This document shows positions 5,015-57,399 of a DNA stretch of 64,000 nucleotides, piece by piece. The notes under the pieces are model-generated. The model ran no database searches, was not told the origin of the DNA, and saw nothing but the letters and a program-made list of their open reading frames with translations. Position 1 is the first letter of the stretch; each line of letters starts with the position of its first letter. Made by a program: the position numbers and the translations under genes. The stretch comes from Bacteroidota bacterium (lineage in GTDB: Bacteria > Bacteroidota > Bacteroidia > AKYH767-A > 2013-40CM-41-45), in NCBI GenBank assembly GCA_016721305.1, contig JADKIH010000001.1, positions 192,091 through 256,090 of the forward strand, in the 5' to 3' direction.

Positions 5015-5256
5015 CATGTTCAAGGTTCAAAGTTCAAAGTTCAAAGTTCAAGGTTCAAAGTTCAAAGTTCAAGGTTCAATGTTTCGGGGTCTGTTCCTAA
5101 TTTGTCAGAAAAGGGAACGTTTATATTCATGAAAAAATGGACAAAAAGGAGACAATTCGCCTATTTAGCATGACACTCCCTAAAGCGCATTTGAACTTTG
5201 AACCTTGAACTTTGAACTTTGAACTTTGAACTTCGAACTTTGAACCTTGAACTTTA
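5015..5256. repeat. Inverted arrays of GTTCAAA-type heptamer tandem repeats flanking a ~105-bp core
   Basis: Left arm 5015..5081 (gttcaaag/gttcaagg)n. Right arm 5188..5256 (ctttgaac)n is its reverse complement. Sits between the GT2 gene stop and the dnaE start. Confidence 0.8.
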
Positions 5257-21300: not shown

Positions 21301-21870
21301 GAAATCAATGAACGCCATACCTTCATTATTACGCAGAAGGAAGACTTAGCCAAAGCGAAAGAATCGTTGCTCAAAACGATCGAAGAAATCGAGCTGACTG
21401 CAAAGGACAACTTCATGCAGGCCTTTACGATGATTCGCGAGAACTTCATCCACGTATTCCGCTCCCTCTTTACTCAGGACGATGATTGTGATCTGGTACT
21501 CATGGATCCATCGAATCCGACAGAAAGCGACGTACAAATCATTGCCAAGCCAAAAGGAAAACGTCCATTATCGATCAGCCAGCTTTCCGGTGGAGAGAAG
21601 ACGCTGACGGCTACGGCCCTCCTCTTCGGTATCTACTTATTGAAGCCGGCTCCGTTCTGTATCTTCGATGAGGTTGACGCGCCTTTGGATGACATGAACA
21701 TCGATAAGTTCAATAACATCATCCGCAAGTTCTCTAAGGACTCTCAATTCATCATCATCACGCACAATAAGCGTACGATGGCAGCTACCGACATCATGTA
21801 CGGTATCACGATGGTTGAGCAAGGAGTTACTCAGGTTGTACCGGTCGACTTAACTGAGATGGTTGAATAG
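18315..21870 (+). CDS. smc: Chromosome segregation protein SMC, broken into 3 consecutive ORFs (18315..19184, 19379..20515, 20419..21870)
   Basis: N-terminal Walker A (MRLTSLEIKGFKSFGDKV...GPNGSGKSNVVDSIRWVLGEQ), long coiled coils, C-terminal signature LSGGEKTLTATALLFGIYLLKPAPFCIFDEVDAPLDD. Confidence 0.85.
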
Positions 21871-22189: not shown

Positions 22190-23230
22190 CAAAAACATGC
22201 GAGTTCGCTTTTCGGGTGATGCCATTACGTTCCGGCAAATCCCGCGACCGCTTACTACCATTAGGTCCTTTAGGGCCTACCAATTCCGAATGCATTTTTC
22301 ACCTAAGGAATTCGACACGCGCAATCGAGATATACTGAAACTTTAGACTGCCGAAGCAATTGTCACATACGTTGCGCTAAAAGAGCTCGCCCCTAAAGGG
22401 GCTTCCTGTACGCGTGTAGTCCAGTGTTACCAAGAGTTCGGCCCTAAAGGGCCTGCTACTTCGAAACGCGCTCTTACAGTGGAATATCTTTACAGCTACA
22501 TTCCATGCAGGAATCTTTAAGCTATCGAAGAAATGGACACATACGTTGCGCTAAAAGAGCTCGCCCCTAAAGGGGCTTGCTATACGCGTGTAGTCCAGTG
22601 TTACCAAGAGTTCGGCCCTAAAGGGCCTGCTACTTCGAAATGCGCTCTTACAGTGGAGTATCCCTACGGTTACTATTCCATGCAGAGATCTTTACACTGT
22701 CGAAGAAATGGACACACGCTTCCGCTCAAAGAGTCCGCCAGAAATTCCAATAAGTTCCGGCAAATCCCGCGATCGCTTACCACTATTAGCCCCTTTAGGG
22801 GCGAACTCTCGGTAACAAGCATCTAAACGAAAACACTAAGCCCCTTTAGGGGCGAACTCTAAAAGGGGCTCGCTCTTCGCGTGTAGTTCGGTGTTACCAA
22901 AAGTTCGGCACTGAAGGTCCTGCTACTTCGAAATGCGCTCGTAAAGTGGAATATCTCCACGGCTATCATTACATGCATGGATCATTACTCTGTCGAAGAA
23001 ATGGACACACGCTTCCGCTCAAAGTGTCCGCCAGAAATACCATTAAGTTCCTGCAAATCCCGCGATCGCTTACCACTATTAGCCCCTTTAGGGGCGAACT
23101 CTCGGTAACAAGCATCTAAACGAAAACACTAAGCCCCTTTAGGGGCGAACTCTAAATGAACTCGCTGTTGACATGTAGTTCAGTGTTACCAAAAGTTCGA
23201 CGCTGAAGGGCCTCTTGCCTTCATCAGTAC
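22190..23230. repeat. Degenerate tandem-repeat array (2 units of ~182 bp, then 2 units of ~280 bp) rich in short GC hairpins
   Basis: Units begin acatacgttgcgctaaaagagctcgcccctaaaggggc at 22365 and 22547, and acacgcttccgctcaaag at 22729 and 23008. Each ends ctgtcgaagaaatggac. Hairpins GCCCC-TAAA-GGGGC, GGCCC-TAAA-GGGCC and GCCCC-TTTA-GGGGC recur. Confidence 0.75.
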
Positions 23231-25283: not shown

Positions 25284-28200
25284 TTACTCAACTACAAGGC
25301 GAAGTGTTTGAGACTGGCCATCTTCAGCTGTTAAGCTAACCATGTACAATCCTTTAGCCACCTGGCTCATGTCGATTTCTTGAGTGTTGTAACCTTCAAC
25401 AGCAGTGATTACATCGCTAACGATAACATTACCTAAAAGGTCTGTTACTTTCACTACATATTTAGCTTTTGCACCTGCAGTGAATGCTACAGTTGCTTTG
25501 CCATTTGTAGGGTTAGGGAATGCTGTCAATTCAGTTGCAGTAGCCATAGCATCTTGAGCATCACGGCAGAACAAGCTTACGCTAACAGTTACACCACGGA
25601 GATGAAGCACCACAAGCATTCAATGCGTTAGCACGAACGATTGCTGATGAGCTCAGAGCTGTATTGTAGTAGTTAACGATAGCTGAAGTTCCAGATGGAG
25701 CGATTGAAGCACCACCAGTTACTGACCATGAGTAAGATGTTGCACCTGCTACCGGAACTAAGCTATAAGTAACCGCAGACTGTGATTTACAAACTGCTGT
25801 AGGACCTGTAACAACTGGAGGAGCAGGACGTGAAGTAACTGTGTAACAACGAGCAACACCTGAACCACAAGAGTTATTTGCAGTTACGCAAATGTTACCC
25901 TGAGTTGTGAATGCACCTGTGAAGTTAACAGTGATAGACAAGCCTGAGTTAGTAACGATACTAACACCTGCTGGAACTGTCCATGAGTAAGAAGTAGCAC
26001 CGGCAACAGCAGCGATTGAGTAAGTCACGTTAGACGTACCACAATTTGCGAAACCTGGACCAGTGATAGAACCCGGTTGAGTTGGAACGAATTTCACAAC
26101 GAATGAACGGCTATAAGTACCGCAACCGTTACCTACAGTGATTGTCACTGTTCCTGAAGTCCAAGATGGTCCCATTGCGAATGTAGCAGAAGTTGTTGTT
26201 GAAGTCTGACCTGATGTAACCAGAGTTGCACCACCTGTGATAGACCAAGTGTAAGTTGAAGCACCCGGTACTACAGGCATTGTGTAAGTAGCAGTGTTGT
26301 TAGCACATACAAACTGAGGACCCGTAACTGCATTAGAGTGAGTAGGGATACCTGTGATAGTCATACCACGAACCGGGCTAAGACCATAGCAGTTTGAACC
26401 ACGAACCTGGATTGAACCTTGTCCGAAACCTGCAGGAACTGAAACTTGAACTGTGTTAGTTCCCTGACCACTTACGATAGATACACCTGTACCGGTTACA
26501 GTCCAGATATAGCTAAGTGCGTTAGCAGAAGTTGTAGAGTAAGTATAAGTTCCAGGACCACAAGCTACAGCCGGACCAGAGATAACTGCCGGTTGAGAAG
26601 CGTAAGTAGCGATAACCGGAATGCTCATACAAGACTGTAAACCTGTACCACAAAGGTTAACCGCAGCTACACAGATGAATCCACCTGCATACGTGTTATT
26701 GAATGCTACAGTGATACTGTTTGTTGTAGAAGAACCAGTTGCGCCTCCAGGGAGTGACCATACATAAGATGTTGCACCAGCAACCGGAGCTACTGAGTAA
26801 ACAATACCTACTGAGTTACGGCAAGCACCTGATGGACCAGAGATCGCACCCGGAGTTGCAGGAGAACCACCTGAACCACCTACAGTAGCTGAAGCAGAAC
26901 CTGTACAACCGTTACCGTCAGTGATAATTACTGTGTAAGTTCCGATTGCAAGACCTGTTGCAGTTGCAGAAGTCTGACCATTTGACCAGAGGGTAAGTAT
27001 AAGAACCTGTACCACCTGTTGCACTTACAGTTGCAGTACCATCGCTACCAGCACAGCTAGAAGCTGTTGTAGTTGTAGTTCCTTCAACTTTAGCAGGCTG
27101 AGTTAATGTTACAGTTACAGAAGCTGAACAACCGTTAGCGTCAGTTACACTGTAAACTGCTGTACCTGCGAATTGAGTAAACACGCCTGTACCAACGTAA
27201 GCCGGTGTACCATCAGCTGCTGAAATAGTAACTGAAGTTGAACCACCGAAGCAAGCAATTGTTCCTGCAGAGTAAGAAGCAGTAAGAACAGCTACCGGAG
27301 CAGCTACGCCTGAACCTGGAGCAGAAGGACAACCATTAGCAGTTGCAGTTACTGTGTATGTACCTGCTGTGCTAACAGTGATACTAGATGTTGTTGCACC
27401 ATTGCTCCACAGTAATGAACCTGAAGCTGATGTAGACAATGTAGTCGTTGCATCACAGTTGTTAACCACAGTTACAACCGGAGTTGCAGGAGTTGGGTTG
27501 ATTGTCAACGCAAGGATCTCAGTGTGGCAACCTACTGTGTTAGTATAAGTACCAGATGCAGTATAAGTAGAACCGTTTACTGACCAAGTGTAAGTATCAC
27601 AAGCTGAAGCTGTAGTTGTGTTAGATGTACTTGGAGTGATTGTCAACACGAGGATTTCTGTGTGGCAACCTACTGTGCTAGTATAAGTACCTGAAGCAGT
27701 GTAAGTGTTACCGTCTACTGACCAAGTGTAAGTATCACAAGCTGAAATTGAAGTTGTGTTTGATGTACTTGGAGTGATTGTTAACACGAGAACTTCTGTG
27801 TGGCAACCAGTTACTACTGAATAAGTACCGCTTGCAGTGTAAGTTGTACCGTTTACTGACCAAGTGTAAGTATCACAAGCTGAAATTGTAGTTGTGTTAG
27901 ATGTACTTGGAGTGATTGTCAACACGAGGATCTCAGTGTGGCAACCTACTGTGTTAGTATAAGTACCGCTTGCAGTGTAAGTTGTACCGTTTACTGACCA
28001 AGTGTAAGTATCACAAGCTGAAATTGAAGTTGAGTTAGATGTACTTGGAGTGATTGTCAACACGAGAACTTCTGTGTGGCAACCTACTGTGCTAGTATAA
28101 GTACCGGAAGCAGTGTAAGTGTTTCCGTCAACTGACCAAGTGTAAGTATCACAAGCTGAAATTGTAGATGTGTTAGATGTACTTGGAGTGATTGTTAACA

Positions 28201-31200
28201 CGAGAACTTCTGTATGGCAACCAGTTACTACTGAATAAGTACCTGAAGCTGTGTAAGTAGTTCCGTTTACTGACCAAGTGTAAGTATCACAAGCTGAAAT
28301 TGTAGTTGTGTTAGATGTGCTTGGAGTGATTGTCAATACGAGTACTTCTGTGTGGCAACCTACTACATTAGTATAAGTACCAGATGCAGTGTATGTGTTA
28401 CCATCTACTGACCAAGTATAAGAATCACAAGCTGAAATTGTAGTTGTGTTTGATGTGCTTGGAGTGATTGTTAACACGAGAACTTCTGTATGACAACCAG
28501 TTACTACTGAATAAGTACCTGAAGCTGTGTAAGTAGTTCCGTTTACTGACCAAGTGTAAGTATCACAAGCTGAAGCTGTAGTTGTGTTAGATGTGCTTGG
28601 AGTGATTGTCAACACGAGGATCTCAGTGTGGCAACCTACTGTGTTTGTATAAGTACCAGACGCAGTGTAAGTGTTACCGTCTACTGACCAAGTGTAAGTA
28701 TCACAAGCTGAAATTGTAGTTGTGTTAGATGTGCTTGGAGTGATTGTCAACACGAGGATCTCTGTGTGGCAACCTACTGTATTAGTATAAGTACCAGAAG
28801 CTGTGTAGTCTGTACCGTTTACTGACCAAACATAATGATCACAAGCTGAAATTGTAGTTGTGTTAGATGTACTTGGAGTGATTGTCAACGCGAGGATCTC
28901 AGTGTGGCAACCAGTTACGAATGTATAAGTACCACTTGAAGTGTAAGTGTTACCGTCTACTGACCAAGTGTAAGTATCACAAGCTGAAACTGTAGTTGTG
29001 TTAGATGTGCTTGGAGTGATTGTCAACACGAGGATCTCAGTGTGGCAACCTACTGTGTTAGTATAAGTACCAGAAGCTGTATAGTCTGTACCGTTTACTG
29101 ACCAAACATAATGATCACAAGCTGAAATCGAAGTTGAGTTCGATGTACTTGGAGTGATTGTCAACACGAGAACTTCTGTATGGCAACCAGTTACTACTGA
29201 ATAAGTACCTGAAGCTGTGTAAGTAGTTCCGTTTACTGACCAAGTGTAAGTATCACAAGCTGAAGCTGTAGTTGTGTTAGATGTACTTGGAGTGATTGTC
29301 AACACGAGAACTTCTGTGTGGCAACCTACTGTGCTAGTATAAGTACCTGAAGCAGTGTAAGTGTTACCGTCTACTGACCAAGTGTAAGTATCACAAGCTG
29401 AAATTGTAGTTGTGTTAGATGTACTTGGAGTGATTGTCAACACGAGAACTTCTGTGTGGCAACCTACTGTGTTAGTATAAGTACCGCTTGCAGTGTAAGT
29501 TGTACCGTTTACTGACCAAGTGTAAGTATCACAAGCTGAAATTGTAGATGTGTTAGATGTACTTGGAGTGATTGTCAACGCGAGGATCTCAGTGTGGCAA
29601 CCAGTTACGAATGTATAAGTACCACTTGAAGTGTAAGTGTTACCGTCTACTGACCAAGTGTAAGTATCACAAGCTGAAATTGTAGTTGTGTTAGATGTAC
29701 TTGGAGTGATTGTCAACACGAGAACTTCTGTGTGGCAACCTACTGTGTTAGTATAAGTACCAGAAGCTGTATAGTCTGTACCGTTTACTGACCAAACATA
29801 ATGATCACAAGCTGAAATTGTAGTTGTGTTCGATGTGCTTGGAGTGATTGTCAACACGAGGATCTCAGTGTGGCAACCTACTGTGTTAGTATAAGTACCA
29901 GAAGCTGTATAGTCTGTACCGTTTACTGACCAAACATAATGATCACAAGCTGAAATTGTAGTTGTGTTCGATGTGCTTGGAGTAATTGTCAGATTGAGGA
30001 TTTCTGTATGGCAACCTGAAACTGAAGTATGAGTTCCGCTTGAAGTGTAAGTGAAACCATCTACCGGCCATGTGTAAGAATCACAAGCTGAAATTGTAGT
30101 TGTGTTTGATGTACTTGGAGTGATTGTCAACACGAGAACGTCTGTGTGGCAACCAACAACATTAGTATATGTTCCGCTGGCAGTGTAATCAGTGCCATTT
30201 ACAGACCATACATAATGATCACAAGCTGAAATTGTAGTTGTTGTTGAAGAACTTGTAGTGATAACAAGGTTCAGGGTATGAACTACAGAACAACCATTTG
30301 CGCCATCATTTGTAGTCGCAGTGTATGTTCCTGACTCAGTATACGTTTGTCCGTTTACAGGCCAGAAATAAGAATCACAAGAAGAGATAGACTCAGTAGT
30401 TGTTAATTGAGCAGGCTGACCAATTGTTACCGTAGCTGTAGATGTACAACCAGGAGTGTTTGGATCTGTAGCAGTAACTGTGTAAGTACCTGCAGCAAGA
30501 CCTGAAGCAGTAGCACCTACTTGTTGTGGAATTGTACTCCATGTATAAGTAGCAGCACCTACAGAACCTGTAGAAGAAGCTGTAGCAGTACCATTAGAAC
30601 CACCGAAGCAAGTTGGTTGAGTTGAACCTTCAATTGAAGCGCTGATTGCACAAGAACTTGGAATAGACATTGCGCAAGGAGTAGATAATGTCTTAGTTAA
30701 TGCTGTAGCTAAAGATACTGTAGTAGCACAGTTTAAGAACATGTTAGCAGAAGCAGTTGTAGCCCAAGTTAAACCAACGTTGGCTCCCGGGTTAAATCCC
30801 TGGCCAAGAGTGTTTGAAATTGTTAAACTGAAACGACCAATTTTCTTAGGAACACCAATCGGAAGTGATGGTGCAACACCATTACAAGAACCGTTACCGT
30901 TGTTCGCATAAGCAGTAGTACCAGAACCTACCGACATCTGACGAACAGCAGCCGTATAAGTAGCAGTAACTGTAGATGTTGGAGGCCACATCAAAGGAGC
31001 ATCCGAAAGTCCATCCTGCACATAAGCAAAGGTGAATGTGTTCACACCTGTTGTTGGAACCAAACCCGTAGCATGGGTCAAACGAATAGTGGCAGCCTGA
31101 AGATTCAGAGCGCCCGGCCCGGTATTAGTTACCATCACATCAAATGAAATTACATTCGATGTAGCCGTACAGTTTGCAGTAGACAGTGTGTAACCCTGCC

Positions 31201-31282
31201 CACTCGACGTCGCCAGTCCCGTCAGAAAGACGAGAAGAGTCATAAGAACTCCTCTGGTGAATAAGTGCGTACTTGTTTTCAT
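25284..31282 (-). CDS. Giant (~2000 aa) T9SS-secreted repeat adhesin, 3 ORF pieces (26918..31282, 25582..27024, 25284..25619), with ~21 tandem 46-aa repeats, SprB-like Cys-containing repeats and a canonical T9SS type-A C-terminal sorting domain
   Basis: Signal peptide [28 protein letters not shown]. Repeat unit [46 protein letters not shown]. C-terminal [13 protein letters not shown]...[13 protein letters not shown]...[25 protein letters not shown] is the classic Por secretion CTD. Confidence 0.7.
27470..30390. repeat. ~21 near-identical 138-bp tandem repeats inside the adhesin coding sequence
   Basis: The DNA reads agtgattgtcaacacgag(g/a)a(t/c)ctc(a/t)gtgtggcaacc... with a 138-bp period; the protein period is 46 aa. 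Confidence 0.85.
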
Positions 31283-43300: not shown

Positions 43301-46300
43301 GCTGCAGCACAAGAACCTGCTCCATCCGGATCGTCTGTAGTTAAAGTAATCGTAACTGAACCTGCTGCGATATCGGCAACAGATGGAGTGTACGTTGTAG
43401 CTGTACCGAATACATTCGATGGATTGAATGTACCTGTACCGCTTGATGACCATGTAGCTGTTGTAGCTGTACCACCGATAGAACCGCCTAATGTATAGTC
43501 ACCACCGCAAATTGTTGCGTTAGCACCTGCAGAAGCAGTTGCCGGAGTTGTACAAGGGCTGATAATAAATGATGCTGCAATTGTATGATCTGCTGCGATA
43601 GCTGTAAATGTGTATGAACCAACAGCACCTACAGAAACTCCGTCAACCAGAACGTCATCAACTTGATAACCTGCGTCAGGAGTGATAGTAAATGAAGGTG
43701 ATGTACCACAATCAACAACTACAGCACCTGACGGAGCAATTGTTCCGTTTGATCCTGCAGAAGCAGTAACAGTGTATTGAATCATAGTTACAACAAATGG
43801 AGCTGAAGTAACAGCACAACCATCAGTAATTACGTCTACTGTATAAGAACCACCTGCGGTTGCTGTATAAGTAGCATTTGTTTCACCGCTGATAGGGTTA
43901 CCGCTTTCGTTCCACTGATATGTTGTAGTTGCACCTGAAGCAGTTGCAGTTAATACTGAAGGACTACCAGTACAAATTGTTGAACTTGTTCCTGAAACGC
44001 TTACTGATGCATTATTAACAGTAATAGTTGCTGTTCCTGAATTTGAACAAGAACCGATAGTAGCAGTTGCAGTATAAGTAGTTGTTGAAGTCGGAGTTAC
44101 CGATACACTTGCAGTTATGTCTGAAGTGTTTGGTGACCATGACCAAGTTGGATTTGTAACTGAAGAATAAGTAAAGTATGTATTCAGACGGTTAGCGCTA
44201 GTTGTAGCTGTTGGATTCATTACAGTAGCAAGATCCGAAGTAGCGCTTGTAGTAGATGTTGTAGCATATACTGCAGTGTTACCGGAAGTAGCTGTGTAAT
44301 ATGTCTGAGCATTGTTGATATTGTCAACACCATCCTGACGAAGATCGACTAAGAGGTTTGAAGTACCATTCCAAGCATAAGGAGTTGAGAAAGTGATCAC
44401 GTTGTTTCCTACTGCATGACTGTATGTTGCAGGACCGTAAACCAATGACAAACCTGATGTTGTGAATGTAGTCAATGTTGATGTACCAACTGTTCCCATG
44501 TAAACACGGAAGTTAGTTACATTCGTATTATCACCTAATGTTGTGATATCGAATCCGATTGAAGTGATGTTGCCGGCAAAAATACCTGCAGCATTCAATT
44601 CAGCCGGTGTAAACACCATCTGGCACCAGTACTGAGCCCAACGGTTACAGAAAGCTGTAGGTTGAGAAGTAGAACCGGACAACGAAGTTGCTGTTCCTAC
44701 AACACCTGCTCCTGATGAACCGATTGTACCACCCGAAGCAACTAATGTCTCAGCCGATGTTCCGCAATGTAATGCAGAAGCCGGAGTGATAGTTACTGCT
44801 GAAGGAGTAGCATTTACGGTTACAGTTGCTGTTGCTGTTGTGTTACAACCAGAACCATCTAACGCACTTACTGTGTAAGTAGTAGTAGATGTTGGGCTAA
44901 CACTATAAGAAGCAGCAGTTGGACCACCTGTCCAAGTGTATGTATAGTTCGGATCGTTTGAACTTGTTGCAGTCAAAGTTGTGCTCTGACCGTTACAAAT
45001 TGTTGTCGTTCCGCCGATAGATACTGATGGAGGTGCGTTTACTGTAACGATTACCTCAGTACGCGGTGTACTTTCACATGTTCCATCGAATTCTGTTACA
45101 TAGAATGTAGTTGTAGCAGAGATAGAAGTTGTGTAAGTAGCCGATACTCCCCGATTGAATTGGTGAGCCTCCTGTAGAAGCTGCATACCAACGGAAATTC
45201 GGTGTTCCTGCACCTGTTGTAGAAGTAACAGAAGCTGTTGGAACGTGAGGACCGCACTGTGTTGAGTTAGAAGCTGTCGGAGCTGATGGAAGCGCTACTA
45301 CAGACACAGAAGCTGTGCTTGCAGAAAGTGTACAACCATTTACATCCGTTGCAGTAACCGTATAAATAGTAGTTCCTGTTGGAGTTACTGTTAATGGGCT
45401 ACCTGTTCCAACTGAACTTGTTCCGTATGACCATGCAAATGTTAAGCCTGAAGCAGCTTTAACACCTGTCCATGTGAATTTCGGACGGTTTGAGTTCGGA
45501 GTTGAAGATGAACCACCTGATGGAGTTCCAGTTGTTCCGCAGATAGTCGCAGATGTCTGACTATCTTGCTGCCAGCCGAAGTTACATACATATGAAGCAA
45601 CATCATATTTGATAGTGCTTGATGATGATGTAGTAAGGCCTGTGCTCCAGCAGAAGCTAACAACGATATTTGATGTTCCGTTCCAGTTGAATGGAGTTGA
45701 GAACGTAAGTGTATTTACACCTACTGTCGGAGTATAGCTTGCACTTGTATAAACGTCAGTCAAACCTGAGAAGAAGCTGTTAGTCATTACAGTGTTAGCT
45801 GTAGAACCGATGCTTAATGCTAAATCAGGGTAAGCCTGACCTGAAGTTGTTGCTTCAAATGATAAAGCTGTGATGTTACCGGCAGACAAACCTGCTGCAG
45901 TAAGATCAGAAGCTCTGATTAGGTATTGAGTTTTTGCACCACCCCATGATCCAGGGAACATTGTTGTTCCGAGTGATGAAGATGTGCTTGCGCCTGCTCC
46001 AAGAGCAACCGTACCATTTTGAGTAGCAGCACCTGTTAAAGTAGTTGTGCTACCTGTACAAACTGTGAGCGGAGAAGCGGAAGCCGAAGCAGAGTAACCT
46101 GTTAAAGGCTCGTCCTGATAAGAAGTTCCTGTCAACGAAGCATTCAGTGGAACGCTGTTAGTTGCAGTTACGCTCCATGTTACAACAGCATTCACAGGTG
46201 TACCGACAGGTATTGTTCCAACCCAAGTGTTACCTGATGAATTTGTCATTGTAATAGGAGACTGAGCAGTACCATTAAAACTGTAGTTTAATACTACTCC

Positions 46301-48817
46301 TGTAATTGTTCCTGAAGGAGTTGTTGCATCAACGCTCACGTTACGTGAAGCTGCTGTACAAAGATTTCCTGTCGGAGAAATTGTAAGACTTGCCAATGCC
46401 GGAGCCGGAGAAGTTCCTGCGAACTCATCAGCACCTGCATCAGGTGTAGTTGCATTACGTGTATCACCATCAAAGTCATCAGTAATGCCTGCAACTGCAG
46501 CACCAATACTTTCTGCTAATGTAGAAGCAGCAGGTGCGAAGTGAAGGAATGTAGAAGATGAACCTGTAGTACTTGCGAATGTGCAGTTTTCTGTGTTAGA
46601 AGCCTGATCACGTGTTGCAGCTAATGTTTTGAAGCCTGCAAATGTATAAGCAGTTGTTCCATCATAATATACTGTGCTACCGTAGAACAAGTTGTTGTTA
46701 GAAGTTGCACCGTAAGATGTAAGAGTCGTAGTTGAACGACGGTAACCAACTGCCAAACCGGCACCGGCTACGCTTGAATTGTTAACGAAGATGTTATTAC
46801 GTAAAGTTAACGCCGGAGTCGTAGAAGCAGAAATAGCGCTTGATCCGAAGAGAGCGCCTGAACTTGAACCTGCTAAATAAACTGTATTGTAATATGCGTT
46901 AACCGTTGTACCACCGGCTACGTTAAGACCTACTACCGGATTGGCAGCATTGGCAGCAGTAGCACGGAGATCTCCGATTAAGTTATTTTGAACAGTATGC
47001 AAAGTTCCGGAGTTAATAGCGATACCATTAATAGTACCGGAAGCATTGCTCGAAGAAAGATCATAAATCTTATTCTTCGAAATTACACAGCTCGTTGGAG
47101 CTGAAGAAGTGATGCCCTGAACTGCCGAAGCACCCGTACTGGCAAAACCGCCAATCGTGTTTCCTACGACTGTTGAAGAAGTTCCTGAAGAACCAATAGT
47201 GATACCGGTAATGGCTCCGCCGCTGGTAATACCTGTAATAGTATTTCCGCTAACCAAATTGCCATTTCCACCTTGAGCACCACCAAAGCTTGAGTTGATA
47301 CCAACGATTGTGCTTGTACCACCAACGATGCTGCTAAATGTATTATTCGAAATATTGTGGTTAACTGAACCACCATCGGTATTATTATAAATGTAATAGC
47401 CGTTGCACCTGTAACTGTCATGTTAGAGAAGTTGTTACTGCTCCAGCTGAACGTTCCAGTTGTAGAACTACCACCTGTCGTAATACCTGTAACAGTACCA
47501 CCGGCGCCTGTTTTATTGAAAGCAGTCACAATTGAGTTACTGTTGATATTTTGTGTACCACCTGCAACTACTGTTATACTATTACTAATAAAAGTAAAAC
47601 TACCTGTTGTACTTGTAGAAAGGTTGGTAAATGTGTTACTATTAATATTAGTAGTTGTAATTGCTGCTGCAGAACTTATTGCTGTAATACTTCCTGTTGC
47701 AGCTACTGTATGATTTAGAGCCGTAAAGTTGTTATTACTAATAGACAAACTTGAACCACTAATAAATGACGTACCTGACACAATAATACCATTTAATGTA
47801 CCTGTTACTCCTGGAGTCACAGCTATGGCATTATTGTTTATTGTATTAGTCGAAGTCGTAGTTGATGCAACAGTATAAGCAATAAGGTTGATACCAGTTA
47901 CTGTTCCACCCACTGTTATACCGCCATTTGAACTTGTCAGCGTATTATAAGAAACGTTTACATTATAAGAGTTACGGATAAGGATACCATTCATAGTACC
48001 GGAAACGTTTACATCACCTGAGAAGGTTGATGTTGTTCCCCAATTAGTGATCGAGTTCCCCTGACCGGCAGATGTACCACCGATATCGATTCCATTGTTC
48101 TGATCAGCTGCAGCTAGTGGTCCGATTACGCAGATACCAAAGTTAACGTTGCTGATCGTGTTTCCATAAACTTTCAAACCACTGTTACCCCAGCTGTTGT
48201 AGTAGCGGATGCAGAAGTAGTGATCGTAGTAGCCGAGTGCGTCGAGTTACTGTAGATACCCCAGGTGTTCTGGTAAGTTCTGTTTAAGGTAATTGTGTTG
48301 TTTTGAATAGTGTTGTTCTGCGCACCATTCGTTGTACCGTTGTAGAACAAGGCTACACCAAATTCCGTCATGTTGTTCGTGCCGGCAGCTGTAGTTGTGT
48401 TCGTACCCAGCTCACTCATTGCGAAGTCCTGGATGGTAATCCAGTCACCGCCGACGATCTTGAAGATCGCATCGGTTAAACTTCCCGCTGTTTGAGCAGG
48501 GGCGGTATTGTACTAGAGCTACCGCTGATGACGATTGTGTTCGTCGAAGTTCCGGTAGCCGTAATAGAATAACCGCCTGCAGGTGCTGTTTCATTACCCG
48601 TGAGGGTGATGGTAACAGGACCCGTAATCGTCGCAGCGTTCAACGCTGTGATGGCGTCGGCAAGACTAGTGTAGGTTGGAGCAAGTCCGGAACCCGAATT
48701 AGTCGTTACCTGAGCATCGGCTTGTGATGTGAACAAGCACAACGCTACGCAACTCGTCAAGAGCAGCCAGCGTGTAAACGCTGATGCCCTCTTGGTAGGG
48801 TAATTGTTGTTTTCCAT
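31371..48817 (-). CDS. Giant (~5800 aa) surface adhesin in 6 ORF pieces: signal peptide, parallel beta-helix (NNTITN) region, many Ig-like ~90-aa repeat modules, an internal large duplication, and a C-terminal dockerin-like module
   Basis: Probable start MENNNYPTKRASAFTRWLLLTSCVALCLFTSQADA (ATG at 48817..48815). ORF pieces 48476..48949, 48174..48419, 47164..48177, 45074..47257, 37567..45213 and 31371..37574 overlap end to end. Recurrent module P.A..QCG.G.P...V.GSGG..RWY...TGG.PI.GESG..L..Y.ISSTTTFYVSEFDGTCE..R. Beta-helix stretch NNTITGNV...NNTITAL. Confidence 0.6.
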
Positions 48818-51094: not shown

Positions 51095-51106
51095 ACTGGC
51101 AGGCGG

Positions 51107-51246
51107 ATTAGCTGATTAGCTGATTAGCTAATTAGCTAATGTTGGCAATTTGGTTAGTTGGTTACTCTATTATATATGTATACTCTTTTATTACTTGTAT
51201 GCTACACTATTCACTCATCAGCTAATCAGCTAATCAGCTAATCAGC
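51107..51246. repeat. Inverted arrays of GATTAGCT/CAGCTAAT octamer repeats around an AT-rich core
   Basis: gattagctgattagctgattagctaattagctaat (51107..51150) ... cagctaatcagctaatcagctaatcagccaat (51205..51246). Confidence 0.8.
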
Positions 51247-51249
51247 CAA

Positions 51250-52410
51250 TCACTTACTGCGAGCCTTCTTCAGCAGTATGTTATAAGCCGCCAAACAGAA
51301 GTACTTCACATCGGTTACGAAAGGACTCTTTTCATAAGCTTGTAAGTAGCGCATTTCGGAAGCCTGGATTTCTTCGATTGTTTTTGGCATATCTACATAG
51401 AATGGCGGAACAAGACCCGGTTTGTGCTTTAGGCGTCTTTCCTGGAGTTCTTCGGAATACAATCCTAAGTAGTGTGATGAGAGAGGGCGAACGCCTACAA
51501 TCTTGAGGTCTCCTTTTATGAGATTCATGATCATCGGTAATTCGTCGATCCAGTAACGGCGGAAGAGGCGACCGAGCGTAGACACGCGGAAGTCGTTATT
51601 CATCTTGCCTCCATCGGCCAGATTGTTCGTGTCGTATACATACTTCTGGATGTACTCACTATATGAGTGCATGGTACGCATCTTATATACATATATAACC
51701 TTTCCGTTTTTGCCGTGGCGGCGCATACGGAAGATTGGTCCATAAACCGGTTCGTAATCGAAGAGCGGTTCTTTTACTTTTGAAGCAACGAAGTAGAGAT
51801 TCTTGCCGATGAATTTCATCGAGCGGATTTCGAAACCGGCAGCATAAAGGCGGCCTAAGGTTTCGGTACGGGAAAGGACTTTGTTACGTTCGCCGACAAG
51901 TACATTATAAAAGAGGCGAGTGATTGGGAACTTCGGGAATACTCGTTTTAAGAAAAAGTCGAGTACATAATATATATGAGCAAGTCCTTTCGGGAACTTG
52001 TTAAAAATTCTTGTTTTGCGGAGATACTTAGTTTCGACACAACCGACAAACAAACCGCCGTCGACCAAATGATCATTTACGTTATGCAAAAACTTGTTGA
52101 TTCCACGAACATCATTAATTCGTTTTAAGTTGATGATCGTGTTTGCGTTGTTTGGAAGATGGTTGATGCTTTCGGAAATCGAAGTACGCATTACAAAAGT
52201 TCCGGGTGCATTGATCTGACAAAATTCCGAAACGTACTTTTTGACGTCGCGTTCCATTCCGCCGATCTTTTCAAGATGCGGACGAAAGGCATGCGATCGT
52301 TTGGAAGAACGCCGAACTTCTTTTGTCGAAACAGCATTCGATCCTTGAACCATTTGTGGTCGGAACGAAAACTGTCGTAAAGCAGCTTTAGTACTTTTTT
52401 CTCGTTTCAT
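51250..52410 (-). CDS. Polyprenyl-phosphate sugar phosphotransferase (bacterial sugar transferase family)
   Basis: C-terminal DELPMIMNLIKGDLKIVGVRP motif, matching the family consensus [21 protein letters not shown]. Confidence 0.65.
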   Translation of the reverse strand: MKREKSTKAALRQFSFRPQMVQGSNAVSTKEVRRSSKRSHAFRPHLEKIGGMERDVKKYVSEFCQINAPGTFVMRTSISESINHLPNNANTIINLKRINDVRGINKFLHNVNDHLVDGGLFVGCVETKYLRKTRIFNKFPKGLAHIYYVLDFFLKRVFPKFPITRLFYNVLVGERNKVLSRTETLGRLYAAGFEIRSMKFIGKNLYFVASKVKEPLFDYEPVYGPIFRMRRHGKNGKVIYVYKMRTMHSYSEYIQKYVYDTNNLADGGKMNNDFRVSTLGRLFRRYWIDELPMIMNLIKGDLKIVGVRPLSSHYLGLYSEELQERRLKHKPGLVPPFYVDMPKTIEEIQASEMRYLQAYEKSPFVTDVKYFCLAAYNILLKKARSK

Positions 52411-52464
52411 GTTAAGTTTCGTTCCCGCAACAAACCTAAGACGTTGATGAATCTTTGGTTTGTC

Positions 52465-52495
52465 TTTTTTGCATTTATCTTACAAATGCAAAAAA
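52465..52495. promoter_or_regulatory. 12-bp-arm perfect inverted repeat (candidate operator) upstream of the sugar transferase gene
   Basis: ttttttgcattt-atcttac-aaatgcaaaaaa, about 55-85 bp upstream of the start at 52410. Confidence 0.35.
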
Positions 52496-52973
52496 TAGTC
52501 GAATTAATTACCTTGAGTTATTTAATTAATTCCTAATATTTTTTTCAGATCTGTTTTGCTTAAACGCAGTAGCAGCGCATCTTCTGAAGGACTCTTCGCT
52601 TATCCGATACCCCATCAGACAAGAAGTTATGAAGAGAGGTGTGTTGATTTCGTTTGTTATTTCAAATCTAATAAAAAGAGTGCGAAAAAGCAAGTTTAAC
52701 GGGTGATTTGCAGAGAGAAGGCTCAATTTTAAAAAAAACAGGCCAAGAGTGAAGAAATTTAGGGTGAAATAGTGCAACTATTCAGCATTGACGGGGTAAA
52801 AGCAGGGACTGGCAGAAGGAATTTTCTTTGGGTTTAAAACCACACGTTCCCAAAACGCACTCAAAGAGAATTCTTCTCTCCGCCGGAATAGTATATACAT
52901 GACGTGAATCGAAGCTTCAATTATTTGAATAAATAATAGGCTTCTTTTTGCATCATAATTAATATTAATTACT

Positions 52974-53900
52974 GTGCCTAAATACTGCCTACTTACAAAC
53001 GATGTCGAAACACACAGCATCTGGTTTAACACGCTGCGTGATGAAACAGGTGTAAAAGTTTTGGAAGAAGGCATGCCATTATTGTTGGACATCTACAAAA
53101 AGTTCAACATCAAAAGCACATTTTATTTTGTCGGCGACATGGCCGAAAAATTTCCCGAAGTTGTCAGAATGGTTGTTCCGTTTGGACACGAAGTTGCTTC
53201 GCATGGTTGGTCGCATGAAGTTGATCAGGCATTCGATGTGTTGTCGTTCGACAAACAAAAAGAACATCTCATTCGTTCCAAAAAAGTTTTGGAAGACATC
53301 TCCGGACAAGAAGTAACATCATTTCGAGCGCCTGCATTGCGAGTAAACAGTGATACACCGAGAGCACTTATCGAAGCAGGATTTAATTGCGACAGTTCGG
53401 TAGCGGCACAAAGATTCGATATGTTTCTTTCGTTCGGAGGAATGAAAAAACTGAATTGGCTGAAAGCTCCTCGCCTGCCATATCGCACCGACCCAAACAA
53501 TCTCTTCCGCAAAGGTGATGGTCCACTTATAGAGATCCCTCTGACAGCGATGTTGTTTCCCTTTGTAGGCACGACGATGCGGATCTTCCCTACGATTACC
53601 AGAATGCAACAGCGACTCTTCCATGCCGAAACCAAATCGACCGGCAAGCCTCTCGTGTTCGACATACATCCGAATGAGATGATCGATGAGAGTACGGAGC
53701 GTAGAACGATTGCACGAAGAACAAAGAATCCGATTAAGTATTTACTGAGTGATGTGATTAGAGGTAAGATGAAAGTCAAAAATCTAGGTCCACAGGCAGC
53801 AGTATTGTATGACGATTTTATTTCCTACTATAAAAATCAGGGGTACGAATTCATTACCGTTAAAGATTACGTGAAAAGAAATTTTCCGGATATCAGATAA
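52974..53900 (+). CDS. Polysaccharide deacetylase family protein (NodB-like)
   Basis: LLTNDVETHS...FYFVGDMAEKFPEVV...VASHGWSHE motifs. Confidence 0.7.
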   Translation: MPKYCLLTNDVETHSIWFNTLRDETGVKVLEEGMPLLLDIYKKFNIKSTFYFVGDMAEKFPEVVRMVVPFGHEVASHGWSHEVDQAFDVLSFDKQKEHLIRSKKVLEDISGQEVTSFRAPALRVNSDTPRALIEAGFNCDSSVAAQRFDMFLSFGGMKKLNWLKAPRLPYRTDPNNLFRKGDGPLIEIPLTAMLFPFVGTTMRIFPTITRMQQRLFHAETKSTGKPLVFDIHPNEMIDESTERRTIARRTKNPIKYLLSDVIRGKMKVKNLGPQAAVLYDDFISYYKNQGYEFITVKDYVKRNFPDIR

Positions 53901-55069
53901 TGAATTTGCAGAATTCCATGGAGAAAAAGAACCCATACAGCGAAGCACTTTTTCGATTACGACAGTACATCGAGAAAGAAGAATTCAAAGGCTACGACCC
54001 GTATGATACGCTGTGCTCTCCTATCCCATTTCACTGGTTCACTTCCTGGGGACCGGTATTGGCGACACAGTTTCAAAAGAGAAATCCGATTAACATTCGT
54101 CCGTTGCTGGGTATTCGAAAAGATTACAATCCGAAAGGCATTGGATTGTTACTGGATACATATTGCAGACTGAAAGAGAAATCTGCTTCGGACATATACG
54201 ACAAACAAATTGATTTTTGTTTTGATTACCTGCAACAGAATAGCACAGAAGGTTTTTCGGGCGCATGCTGGGGCTATAATTTTCCATGGGCAACGACGGA
54301 GAAATATCTGCCTTCGTTTGAGCCATCTTCTGTCGTAACGGGTTTTGTGAGCAGAGGAATTGACCGATACAGAATCTTGACCGGCGATGAACGGGCATCT
54401 GAGTTTATACAGAGTGCGGCAGTTTTCATTGATAAAGATCTGACAAAAACTACTTTCGAAAGCGGTATTTCCATCAGCTACACGCCGGTGCTAACCGATT
54501 GTTGTTACAATGCATCCTTATTAGGTGCAGAAGTGCTGGCAAGGGCTCACCGGTTGAAGGCGAATGCTCATTACAGGCAGAATGCCATTGCTGCAGTAAA
54601 TTTTGTTATTAGTAAACAGTTGGATGATGGTTGCTGGAATTACTCGATGAATTTAAAGACGGGGGAAGAACGAAAACAGATTGATTTTCATCAGGGGTAT
54701 GTGATCGACAGTATTCGAATAATTGCTAAGTTGCTGGAGATAAAAGATACGATGTGGGAGCAGGCAATTCGTAAGGGTTTGAAGTTTTATAAGGAGCAGC
54801 AGTTTTTCGAAGATGGAAGAAGTTTGTGGAGATTGCCTAAGGAATTTCCTGTGGAGATTCATAATCAGTCGCAGGGGATTATTACTTTTTTTGATAGTGG
54901 TGATGTTGAATTTGCGAAGAGAATTGCGGATTATACGATTGCGCATATGCAGGATCGAAAGGGGTATTTCTATTATCGGAATTTTCGTTGGTATAAGAAT
55001 AAGATTTCCTATATGAGATGGAGTAATGCGTGGATGATGGTGGCGTTGGAGAGGTTGGTTTCAGGCTGA
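53900..55069 (+). CDS. Hypothetical protein (389 aa) in the polysaccharide cluster
   Basis: Long ORF with good coding appearance and the start overlapping the upstream stop (ATGA). No family recognised by eye. Confidence 0.4.
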   Translation: MNLQNSMEKKNPYSEALFRLRQYIEKEEFKGYDPYDTLCSPIPFHWFTSWGPVLATQFQKRNPINIRPLLGIRKDYNPKGIGLLLDTYCRLKEKSASDIYDKQIDFCFDYLQQNSTEGFSGACWGYNFPWATTEKYLPSFEPSSVVTGFVSRGIDRYRILTGDERASEFIQSAAVFIDKDLTKTTFESGISISYTPVLTDCCYNASLLGAEVLARAHRLKANAHYRQNAIAAVNFVISKQLDDGCWNYSMNLKTGEERKQIDFHQGYVIDSIRIIAKLLEIKDTMWEQAIRKGLKFYKEQQFFEDGRSLWRLPKEFPVEIHNQSQGIITFFDSGDVEFAKRIADYTIAHMQDRKGYFYYRNFRWYKNKISYMRWSNAWMMVALERLVSG

Positions 55070-55385
55070 TTTATTTCATGCTGATTTGTTTCCTGCTGAT
55101 TTGTTTCCTGCTGATTTGTTTCCTGCTGATTTGTTTCCTGCTGATTTGTTTCCCGCAGATTTCGCAGACAAAAAATCCCGCAGATTACGCGGATGGGGTC
55201 CTGTTGATTTGTTTCCCGCGGATTTGTTTCCCGCAGATTTCGCAGACAAAAAATCCCGCAGATTACGCAGATGGGTTCCTGCTGATTTGTTTCCCGCGGA
55301 TTTGTTTCCCGCGGATTTGTTTCCCGCTGATTTGATTCCCGCTGATTTTCCCGCAGATTACGCAGATGGGTTCTCGTAGAAATTC
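55066..55385. repeat. Left repeat arm: (gctgatttgtttcct)n tandem 15-mers grading into ~62-bp units cctgctgatttgtttcccgcagatttcgcagacaaaaaatcccgcagattacgcagatgggtt
   Basis: Read directly; it is the reverse complement of the array at 55845..56220. Confidence 0.85.
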
Positions 55386-55458
55386 GCATATATTATCCAT
55401 CATCTATTGGTTGTGATTAACATGGCGAGGCTTTTTCTTTGTCTAAAATAAAAACCAA

Positions 55459-55836
55459 ATGACTGAAAATGAAATTTCTTATATTGTTAGAGGTGCGATC
55501 TATGAAGTGTACAACGAGTTTGGTCCTGGGCTTTTTGAAAAGGTTTATGAGAAAATATTGCAAATCCGTCTTAGAAAGAGAGGATTGTCAGTAAAGGCTC
55601 AGGTTGTCGTCCCACTTATTGTTGACGGTATCGTTATTGACTCTGCATTCAAAGCGGATTTAATAGTTGAAGAAAAAGTTATTGTTGAAATAAAATCTAT
55701 TGATGCTATTGGCAAAGTTCAGCACATGCAGTTGCTAACATACCTTAGACTATCAAAATTGAAATTAGGCATACTCGTAAACTTCAACACTGATGAAATA
55801 TCAAAATCTATTTTTCGAAAAGTGAACAATTTGTAA
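55459..55836 (+). CDS. GxxExxY family protein (PD-(D/E)XK nuclease-like mini-protein)
   Basis: 125 aa; MTENEISYIVRGAIYEVYNEFGPGLFEKVYEKIL carries the GxxExxY signature, followed by the D...E.K core (IVEIKSIDAIG). Confidence 0.8.
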   Translation: MTENEISYIVRGAIYEVYNEFGPGLFEKVYEKILQIRLRKRGLSVKAQVVVPLIVDGIVIDSAFKADLIVEEKVIVEIKSIDAIGKVQHMQLLTYLRLSKLKLGILVNFNTDEISKSIFRKVNNL

Positions 55837-55844
55837 TAGATATC

Positions 55845-56220
55845 CGCAGGAAATAATCCTCGAGAAACCATCTGCGTAATCTGCGCTTTTTTTTGTCTGC
55901 GTAATCTGCGGGAAACAAATCAGCAGGAACCCATCTGCGTAATCTGCGGAATTTTTGTCTGCGAAATCTGCGGGAAACAAATCAGCAGGAACCCATCTGC
56001 GTAATCTGCGGAATTTTTGTCTGCGAAATCTGCGGGAAACAAATCAGCAGGAACCCATCTGCGTAATCTGCGGGAAATAATCCGCGGGAACCCATCTGCG
56101 TAATCTGCGGGATTTTTGTCTGCGAAATCTGCGGGAAACAAATCAGCAGGAACCCATCTGCGTAATCTGCGGGATTTTTGTCTGCGAAATCTGCGGGAAA
56201 TGATTAGTGTTATCTGCAGG
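55845..56220. repeat. Right repeat arm: ~5.5 tandem copies of the 62-bp unit aacccatctgcgtaatctgcggaatttttgtctgcgaaatctgcgggaaacaaatcagcagg
   Basis: Read directly; inverted relative to 55066..55385. Confidence 0.85.
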
Positions 56221-56227
56221 AAAAGAA

Positions 56228-57399
56228 TCAACGGCGTCGATTCATGCCTTCAATAATCCCCACAAAAAAATCGGTCACATTAATTTTGTCTTTTAAAAAT
56301 CGTGATCGCTTTCCATTCCATTCGCTCTTGCGATTAGCGTTTTTAAGAAGCATCAAAATTGTTTCAAGTAATAAAGCTTCATTCTCCGGCTTGATACCGA
56401 AGCCAAGTTTGTAATCATCCTCCAACTCCCGCAAGTAACCGATTCGTCCAACGAAATCATTGTAACGAATAAACGGAACACCAAGCACTCCGGCCTCCGC
56501 TGCCATGGTTTGACTATCGCCGATGTACATATCCGCAAAAGCCATTACATGATGCATATCGATTGGACGAATGTTTAAACGATACGGTTCAAACTCCGCT
56601 TCCATCTCTCGCTCTGCCGTGATATACACTTTTCCGTGCGGTTTCAACAAGGCAATCATCTTCAAGGCAAGACCCTTTGTAATTCCCTTTACACCGGAAT
56701 CATGATGCGCTTTCAGTTTCGCAAAACGAATTAAAAAATACGGCTCATCGGGATTGAAATATTCCGGACTACATTTTTATCGGCCGCAAAAACATCAGGA
56801 TGCAGGTATGCCAGCTCGTGATTCCCTTTGTATGAAATTGTTTTATCGGGACGACCGGTATTGCATACTTCCGGCGATAACAACTTGCCCGCAAACGGAT
56901 GCGCGAGCTTTTTCACGAGGGGAATCACATCAGCATCATCTTCATTGACGAAAATATTGGGTATACGTAACAGCCAGCCGATGTGACAAATTTCAGTGGA
57001 TGTACCGACGAGCAAATCGGGTCGTGAGCGCAGGCATTTTTTCAACAAACGAAAATCCTGTTTTGCCAGTCCCATCGCAATCGAGAACTTATTATCTTTC
57101 CTGCCGTCGGGTAAAAAATTTTCATACTCCCACCCTTCACTCTTCAGGAGATCCTCGAGAACATCTTTTTTGGTCGCAACCAACATCAAATCATGCCCAT
57201 TCTGTTTCAGTCTTTTTATCGTGTGATGAAACAGATGAAAGTGTGCAGGATGATGGAGGTAGAATAAAATTTTCATAAAGCGAAATTGAATGAGGTCTTT
57301 ATGAGCCGGATCAGCTATTAAGCTTTTCCGAGAGATCCTTGACAACTTTAGCAGGCACACCGGCAACCAGTACCCGCGGGGGTACATCTTTGGTAACAA
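56228..57399 (-). CDS. DUF354-like protein (putative glycosyltransferase-like), 2 ORF pieces (56731..57399, 56228..56665)
   Basis: MKILFYLHHPAHFHLFHHTIKRLKQNGHDL N-terminus. The adjacent ORF continues the same protein after a frame break. Confidence 0.45.

Follow-up and report, generated by a model that had tools for sequence, protein, structure and literature searches.

How does a gene for a 125-aa protein of the GxxExxY family come to lie between two long, mutually inverted repeat arrays in the middle of a bacterial polysaccharide cluster, and is this arrangement an element in its own right? The question is raised by a locus on contig JADKIH010000001.1 of a Bacteroidota bacterium, which we analyzed within a stretch of 64,000 nucleotides (the window). 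The gene and its two arms, together referred to as the cassette, occupy the entire gap between two convergent genes of the cluster. The reading that we favor, with a probability of roughly 45%, is that a widespread selfish cassette, comprised of a nuclease and its cognate repeats, is present here in an unusually expanded form and would act on DNA in a manner akin to REPIN/RAYT systems or homing elements.

The GxxExxY gene and its inverted arms

Both arms are arrays of direct repeats, inverted with respect to each other (for example, 55-nt arms are 98% complementary and 75-nt arms 85% complementary), and both are built from a shared 7-nt word, CGCAGAT, with the variants CGCGGAT, CGCTGAT, TGCTGAT and CGCAGAC. 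The two arms contain about 50 words at spacings of 9 or 14-16 nt, all of one polarity per arm (Table 1), while the gene itself contains none. The 18-mer CATCTGCGTAATCTGCGG has 16 matches with up to 3 mismatches, where 0.01 would be expected by chance; every one of them lies inside the arms, those of the left arm on the minus strand and those of the right arm on the plus strand. An earlier account of this DNA, made from its letters alone (the sequence-only reading), had described a 62-bp unit in both arms. This description holds for the right arm (3.4 + 2.3 copies) but not for the left, which is composed of 15-nt units (6.5 and 4.9 copies) and 78-nt units (2.5 copies). Its account of short gaps between arms and gene (73 nt and 8 nt) and of a position between stop codons at 55069 and 56228 is correct. 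The first repeat unit of the left arm supplies the TGA stop of the upstream 389-aa gene and the right arm stops 8 nt short of the stop codon of the DUF354 gene. A lone tandem word pair (CCGCAGATAGTCGCAGATG) at 45531-45556, inside an open reading frame (ORF; 45074..47257, minus strand) and with no inverted partner nearby, is probably a chance occurrence or a relic.

Table 1. Coordinates of the cassette and of the genes that converge on it, in window positions.
Feature	Position	Strand	Remark
Left host gene, 389 aa, converging on cassette	53900..55069	+	Weak Pec_lyase match
Left arm, 21 CGCAGAT-type words, all sense; 15-nt units and 78-nt unit	55065..55385	+	
Leader, 73 nt, unique sequence between left arm and start codon	55386..55458	+	Kept in metagenomic copies L001-L005
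GxxExxY gene, 125 aa, minimal PD-(D/E)XK nuclease of RecB/Cas4/lambda-exonuclease type	55459..55836	+	Profiles, alignment, model
Right arm, 28 minus-strand words (ATCTGCG on plus); 62-bp units and one 37-nt partial unit	55845..56220	-	
Right host gene, C-terminal part of DUF354-like glycosyltransferase-type gene, converging on cassette	56228..56665	-	
Right host gene, N-terminal part of DUF354-like gene	56731..57399	-	

The arms together are predicted to form a long hairpin. A 1191-nt single strand covering the region folds into one stem of ~300 bp between the arms, with the gene in its loop (minimum free energy, -540 kcal/mol). In a comparison of 64 loci, none is as expanded as the window copy, which has 21/30 words where the medians are 5/4.5; its arms are unusual in their pure polarity and in not being composed of tandem whole hairpins.

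The identity of the gene as a 125-aa GxxExxY gene within inverted arms is confirmed by arm complementarity and by two profiles, PF13366 PDDEXK_3 (E=5e-37, 127.2 bits, cut-off 22) and TIGR04256 GxxExxY (E=2e-37, 127.9 bits, cut-off 35); a Pfam/NCBIfam scan of the protein gave no other match. The name-giving motif is G24-LF-E27-KV-Y30, and an alignment of the window protein with 40 homologs leaves E27, D67, E77, K79, Q91 and Y95 invariant. This E-D-ExK-QxxxY set marks a PD-(D/E)XK nuclease of the RecB/Cas4/lambda-exonuclease type. The AlphaFold model (mean confidence score pLDDT, 94.9) has the PD-(D/E)XK alpha-beta fold, and its nearest folds in the PDB are Cas4 SSO0001 (probability 1.0, TM score 0.55), lambda exonuclease and the CinB nuclease. 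A sequence search of the PDB with the window protein found no match, and hence no solved structure of a relative; a PHROGs search likewise gave no match. Although the modeled fold and the motif set thus point to Cas4, RecB and lambda exonuclease as the best structural matches, the window protein is half the size of these nuclease domains, lacks the Fe-S cysteine cluster and has no cas genes nearby, and the weak Cas4 profile matches that were all PADLOC returned (E ~1e-3 over 40-48 residues) do not suffice for membership.

The family is very large, with 13,107 clusters at 50% identity (E<=1e-3), and several members of 260-295 aa (P0248, P0250, P0251, P0262 and others) carry two GxxExxY domains in tandem. 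Few of its genes are found on plasmids (5 among 72,556 records) or in IMG/VR viral contigs (6 loci), so the family is mostly chromosomal; carriage by plasmids or phages as the main vehicle was rejected on these counts. Thousands of genomes have annotated GxxExxY proteins, for which no role is known, and their link to a single conserved word of DNA offers a concrete substrate that can be tested. Our searches for GxxExxY, PF13366, PDDEXK_3, TIGR04256 and the repeat strings found no account of the gene-plus-word architecture in the searchable literature, and we found no Rfam family that describes the association.

Word arrays across the GxxExxY family

Whether the arms belong to the gene can be judged from 80 metagenome loci that were picked by protein similarity alone (49-64% identity to the window protein). 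Word and word-pair counts were used for this comparison, since a 7-mer sharing statistic proved too noisy in AT-rich flanks. Within 250-nt flanks, the upstream side has 97 exact copies of CGCAGAT and the downstream side 103 of ATCTGCG, while shuffles give ~0.6 and reversed words 0-1. This corresponds to 5.2-5.3 words per kb, as compared to 0.20-0.24 per kb at distances beyond 600 nt, and tandem word pairs are found at 4.8 and 5.3 per kb in the flanks against 0.13 per kb in control DNA. Single words are enriched ~25-fold and tandem pairs ~38-fold, with the predicted polarity. A tandem word pair is present on at least one side in 56/73 loci, and at least two listed words lie within 160 nt in 69/82 loci.

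The consensus of the word is C[G/A]C[A/G][G/A]A[T/G], typically CGCAGAT, in the sense orientation on the 5' side of the gene and antisense on the 3' side. Loci without an exact CGCAGAT show the same design with the variant words CACAGAT, CGCAGAG, CGCAAAG, CACGGAT and CGCAGAA. Word types cluster on the protein tree, with variants following protein clades, and substitutions occur in both arms together such that complementarity is kept. Word spacing across loci peaks sharply at 9 and 10 nt, about one helical turn, and in many loci words lie 1-10 nt from a start or stop codon.

More distant homologs share the design. Divergent GxxExxY genes, which a tblastn search with the window protein alone missed and an iterated hidden Markov model recovered, lie in loops of ~400-470 nt in Verrucomicrobiia (L124), Victivallales (L077) and Opitutaceae (L099), one example being 27% identical to the window protein. 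A homolog on a viral contig (L220) has CGCAGAA three times per arm, a Sphingomonas homolog between fabD and fabG keeps the bracket with the word CGCGAAG, and in a Treponema homolog the bracket is a 22-nt inverted repeat. A 63%-identical homolog, P0013, sits between efflux genes in ten metagenome-assembled genomes (MAGs), where it is flanked by 2-6 tandem complete word hairpins of ~100 nt each, the number of which varies among MAGs. A homolog of 65% identity, P0036, is encoded by the cultivable Chryseobacterium gleum. The expectation that other GxxExxY genes carry the same arms is therefore borne out in the 80 loci and in distant homologs; the design persists at 27-35% protein identity, spans many phyla and is general for the GxxExxY family. 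Insertion into a polysaccharide cluster, as described by the sequence-only reading, is true of the window copy yet not special to it, since efflux, fatty-acid and other operons house further copies, and we imply no role for the cassette in polysaccharide synthesis.

The word also occurs without the gene. A 20-mer from the arm, CCCATCTGCGTAATCTGCGG, for which ~1 match in public genomes is expected by chance, was found in at least 119 genome stretches. Among the matches listed, its carriers belong to Verrucomicrobiota, Planctomycetota, Acidobacteriota, Gemmatimonadota, Bacteroidota, Chloroflexota, Cyanobacteria, Gamma-/Betaproteobacteria, Spirochaetota, Armatimonadota, Hydrogenedentota and Lentisphaerota/Kiritimatiellota. 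Complete genomes with the 20-mer include Limisphaerales JBMNFQ010000001.1, Methylophaga OZ244110.1 and Gemmataceae LR594585.1. The 20-mer is the 3' half of a hairpin, CCGCAGATTACGCAGAT-TCA-CGCAGAT, loop, ATCTGCG-CCC-ATCTGCGTAATCTGCGG, and, again among the matches listed, its inverted partner lies upstream in 56/122 cases and downstream in 8. Gene-less word hairpins with loops shorter than 60 nt are common in the intergenic DNA of at least 12 phyla. Loop lengths are bimodal, with 128/223 below 60 nt and a second mode at 380-600 nt that is nearly all GxxExxY. No other recurrent cargo was found in CGCAGAT loops, which otherwise held just ordinary genes between two separate hairpins, or non-coding DNA.

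Such hairpins, together with other inverted tandem arrays without genes in this genome, are what one would cite for a mere coincidence, in which an intergenic repeat family happens to adjoin a small gene. The sequence-only reading had named two signs of this, arrays that are widespread without a gene and GxxExxY copies that lack arms; the first is found, whereas the second is not, as other copies do have arms. Gene-less hairpins are no proof of coincidence, because they are expected of autonomous and non-autonomous partners. Coincidence is refuted by the enrichment, which has the right polarity and was measured in loci picked solely by their proteins. A design kept across phyla at such low protein identity speaks against it as well, leaving it scarcely credible.

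The cassette site in relatives

The chromosomal site of the cassette can be recognized in other genomes by orthologs of the 389-aa gene, which a homolog search found at 99%, 75% and 60% identity. A protein identical to that of the window is encoded on five short metagenome contigs (L001-L005), all of which are broken in or near the arrays. Short-read contigs of this locus end inside the arrays and many GxxExxY contigs are short, but short contigs are typical of the collection. The array is ~150 nt long in L002 and 320 nt in the window. Orientation also differs. The window and L002 share one orientation (A), while the opposite one (B) is found in L001, where the DUF354 gene is joined to the 5' side of the nuclease gene, and in two relatives. 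One of these, a JGI contig (L227), has a DUF354 gene that is 87% identical and a nuclease that is 75% identical; the other (L217) has the 75%-identical ortholog, a 134-aa GxxExxY gene and single-copy 38-nt inverted arms made of CACGGAA/CGCGGAA words. Thus, the cassette is found in both orientations at one site, and its word and unit copy number differs between strains. L001 also crosses the junction of the split DUF354-like gene in one frame, which traces the split to a frameshift in the assembly analyzed here, whether through a sequencing error or because the gene is a pseudogene.

Both orientations at a polysaccharide locus would also be expected of a switch, in which the segment flips between its inverted repeats to control the neighboring genes, as in the invertible promoters of Bacteroides. 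However, both neighbors turn their 3' ends toward the cassette, so that an internal promoter cannot drive them. Other products of the cluster are a sugar transferase, a polysaccharide deacetylase and oxidoreductases, and the adjacent ORFs (51250-57399 scanned) are sugar-modifying enzymes with no site-specific recombinase among them. The same type of cassette is found in efflux and fatty-acid operons elsewhere, and a switch is very improbable.

Comparison of further loci suggests that the cassette can appear or vanish as a whole, its boundary lying slightly beyond the first word. Homology between L192 and L197 begins ~6 nt outside the first left word, and the two are unrelated before that point. 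In L197 (2340-2980) and L200 (4043-4677), a GxxExxY cassette interrupts a gene of another family, PF05635, after ~66 nt. A second site in L197 holds an intact PF05635 gene, whereas the second site in L200 holds a second copy of the composite of PF05635 5' fragment and GxxExxY cassette, 99.5% identical to the first. This comparison implies that the cassette was copied between related sites. The composite copies in L200 flank an epimerase gene, and the right junction runs via a 20-nt microhomology within the beginning of a paralogous epimerase gene; the copying route in this case looks like ordinary gene conversion.

An alternative is a nuclease that is domesticated or regulates itself and that is not a selfish or mobile element. 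The arrays would be operator-like sites of its own gene, or the nuclease would serve the host in genome maintenance by resolving repeat hairpins or cruciforms. The occurrence of phased direct repeats to either side of the gene, the size and age of the family, its mostly chromosomal location and the occupation of the same site at 75% flank identity are all consistent with this view. Autoregulation leaves unexplained, however, the gene-less hairpins, the insertion inside another gene and the placement in unrelated operons. Moreover, GxxExxY proteins at the window site are only ~50-75% identical, and so more diverged than the flanking genes (75-87%), which suggests replacement or faster evolution. 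In the only relevant mention that the literature searches found, a table row in Steczkiewicz et al. (2012), PF13366 appears as 'unknown', and multiple transfers together with mixed clades are noted, which also speaks against domestication. We therefore regard domestication as quite unlikely.

Proposed DNA-level action, known systems and neighboring arrays

A further alternative places the constraint on RNA rather than DNA. In this case, the arms would be a transcript stem (an RNase III processing site, a 3'-end stabilizer or a terminator), the GxxExxY gene would be a passenger and the gene-less hairpins would be mRNA elements similar to repetitive extragenic palindromic (REP) sequences. The ~300-bp stem fits this picture, as do the words that abut start and stop codons and so place the arms in transcripts, the many hairpins in 3' or intercistronic positions, and the joint change of variant words in both arms. 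Genes of the PF05635 family add to it. At the orthologous site in the 60%-identity relative (L218), a (TTCGTGA)n array is followed by a PF05635 gene, annotated as a '23S rRNA IVS protein' (IVS, intervening sequence), and inverted arrays enclose other PF05635 genes as well.

Across phyla, however, the primary sequence of the word is kept specifically with GxxExxY, beyond what pairing requires; sequence drift, of the kind seen in the PF05635 arrays, would be expected if the arms served as a stem alone. Direct repeats phased at 9-10 nt are typical of protein-DNA binding rather than of an RNA helix, and Rfam gave nothing at the gathering score, with chance-level matches only in the window (SNORD11, mir-3747, Ysr283). 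Mismatches in the best arm pairings of 37 loci are no more often G:U-compatible on the sense strand (19) than on the antisense strand (18), with 60 others. Of the gene-less hairpins, 21 lie in convergent, 34 in tandem and 10 in divergent gaps, which is about the distribution of the gaps themselves, with no strong bias against divergent ones, and their asymmetric side is unrelated to gene direction. Neither a terminator function (from gene-context counts) nor the RNA reading (from G:U bias) is supported by these tests, which are small and based on crude ORF calls. The lack of G:U bias and of a tie between hairpin asymmetry and gene direction favors DNA-level over RNA-level constraint, and we consider an RNA element unlikely.

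Conserved primary sequence and helical phasing fit recognition of the DNA by a protein, and we prefer the reading of a selfish nuclease-repeat cassette. The proposal made in the sequence-only reading, a mobile or selfish nuclease cassette or a nuclease with its own site array, is partly supported, by the recurrence of the arms with the family, the two orientations and one presence/absence polymorphism; the steps from word recognition onward we infer. The nuclease would recognize the phased words on DNA, as duplex or as a hairpin or cruciform extruded from the inverted arms, and then nick or cut there. Breaks would be repaired by recombination between word-bearing copies, which might occasionally copy the gene into gene-less hairpins in a homing-like gene conversion, and which would keep the two arms alike and flip the segment, while the arrays would expand or contract by slippage. 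The outcome would be a selfish partnership of nuclease and repeat, analogous to RAYT/REPIN but built on an unrelated enzyme, and in the window the arms would have grown to ~320 and 376 nt, filling the gap between the convergent genes. It is possible, though somewhat unlikely, that GxxExxY cassettes form an unrecognized cross-phylum selfish class, in which a 125-aa Cas4/RecB-like nuclease reads CGCAGAT and spreads without a transposase, by break-induced gene conversion into gene-less hairpins.

Several points weigh against the selfish cassette. PD-(D/E)XK enzymes act by hydrolysis and cannot by themselves perform strand transfer. The sequence-only reading had proposed to look for an empty site in the orthologous polysaccharide locus of relatives, but all three relatives examined (3/3) are occupied, and neither a target-site duplication nor a clean empty site was found at the window locus. 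Within the 64-kb window there is just one copy of the cassette and no gene-less CGCAGAT hairpin. Homologous recombination and the 20-nt microhomology suffice for the duplication in L200, which thus needs no element-encoded activity. The co-variation of word and protein could equal simple co-inheritance along host lineages. Words so close to start and stop codons imply that the gene is transcribed through an arm, which gives room for a role at the RNA level, and the gene-in-inverted-array design of PF05635 genes, with unrelated words, means that part of the architecture is not specific to the GxxExxY nuclease. Finally, L001 is a short-read contig and a possible chimera. However, the window arms share no exact match longer than 49 nt, far below the 126 nt needed for a path swap in a k=127 assembly graph, which makes a chimera unlikely, and L227 and L217 show orientation B independently.

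Of known systems, the cassette works most like REPIN/RAYT (PMC3337134, bioRxiv 10.1101/2022.05.22.493013). Both comprise a small nuclease-type gene flanked by inverted short repeats, and in both the repeat is scattered in intergenic DNA as gene-less, hairpin-forming inverted pairs and in tandem clusters; for the cassette, such pairs are abundant in related loci and other phyla, with none in the window. The cassette nevertheless fails membership, because it has no HUH/Y1 (IS200/IS605-like) enzyme and encodes a PD-(D/E)XK protein in place of the HUH/Y1 transposase. In addition, its arms are phased tandem 7-nt words rather than a single palindrome, its genes are often multi-copy, and CGCAGAT is common to many phyla, unlike the lineage-specific REPs, whose superfamilies are tagged GTAG or CGTC (PMC3733652) and do not include it.

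PD-(D/E)XK homing endonucleases exist, e.g. I-Ssp6803I. As with free-standing homing endonuclease genes, breakage of an empty target followed by repair from an occupied one could be what lets the small nuclease gene of the cassette spread, and an occupied site would part two half-sites by ~450 nt. The cassette would differ from these genes in targeting a repeat found at many places instead of a single conserved gene, and there is no intron or intein. Insertion sequences and miniature inverted-repeat transposable elements resemble the cassette in terminal inverted repeats with phased sub-repeats that bracket one small gene, in shorter gene-less derivatives and in the interruption of another gene (L197/L200). 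The cassette differs from them in matching no DDE, HUH, serine or tyrosine recombinase and in showing no target-site duplication, and a hydrolytic nuclease alone cannot transpose. The intergenic 7-nt arrays of variable copy number known as cyanobacterial STRR (short tandemly repeated repetitive) heptamers and Beggiatoaceae TAACTGA repeats are similar at the level of the word, but they are described as direct arrays mostly upstream of start codons and not inverted pairs around a nuclease gene (PMC4679880).

The PF05635 mini-genes offer a parallel in architecture. PF05635 ('23S_rRNA_IVP') is a four-helix bundle, and processing by RNase III is known for the IVS. Like the cassette, the 23S rRNA IVS has a ~120-aa mini-ORF in the loop of a long inverted-repeat stem; unlike it, the cassette lies between protein-coding genes, has no rRNA match and encodes a PF13366 protein of unrelated fold. 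We observed PF05635 genes bracketed by inverted short-word arrays at L218 (5180-5511), L192 (3900-4600) and L197 (3900-4600), with a run of GTTTTGGC extending for ~300 nt. Their words are variable (TTCGTGA, TTATGCG, GTTTTGGC), whereas those of GxxExxY are conserved. The shared design suggests that hairpin-borne mini-genes form a broader class.

A nuclease gene paired with a palindromic repeat family is a kind of element already known, and there is a real chance that the cassettes are a distinct class of element. If the nuclease does read the words, they would be a transposase-free analogue of REPIN/RAYT with a much wider phylogenetic reach, giving a function to an orphan family of >13,000 clusters and a candidate for a minimal sequence-specific nuclease, possibly a very small nuclease or DNA-binding module. 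The cassettes mark recombination-prone points in polysaccharide, efflux and fatty-acid operons.

The window contains further repeat arrays. Two inverted arrays, (GTTCAAA)x9 at 5018-5083 and (TTTGAAC)x9 at 5190-5255, are 90-94% complementary and lie between two minus-strand ORFs; the ~106 nt between them hold no obvious gene, so that this is a gene-less inverted-word design with a word unrelated to CGCAGAT. A second inverted pair, (GATTAGCT)x4 at 51105-51140 and (ATCAGCTA)x4.5 at 51217-51252, is ~76 nt apart and abuts the stop of the sugar-transferase gene (51250..52410, minus strand). Complex non-coding repeats at 22337-23213, with periods of 174 and 293 nt, 73-nt inverted arms and small GC-rich hairpins (GCCCCTAAAGGGGC), lie in a 1.5-kb gap between ORFs ending at 21870 and 23401. 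A coding repeat is found at 27499-30262, where a 138-nt unit recurs 20 times (84% matches) inside a 1454-aa ORF (26918..31282, minus strand) beside ORFs of 2067 and 2548 aa, and a perfect intergenic heptamer array, (GGGTTGC)x5, occupies 1169-1204.

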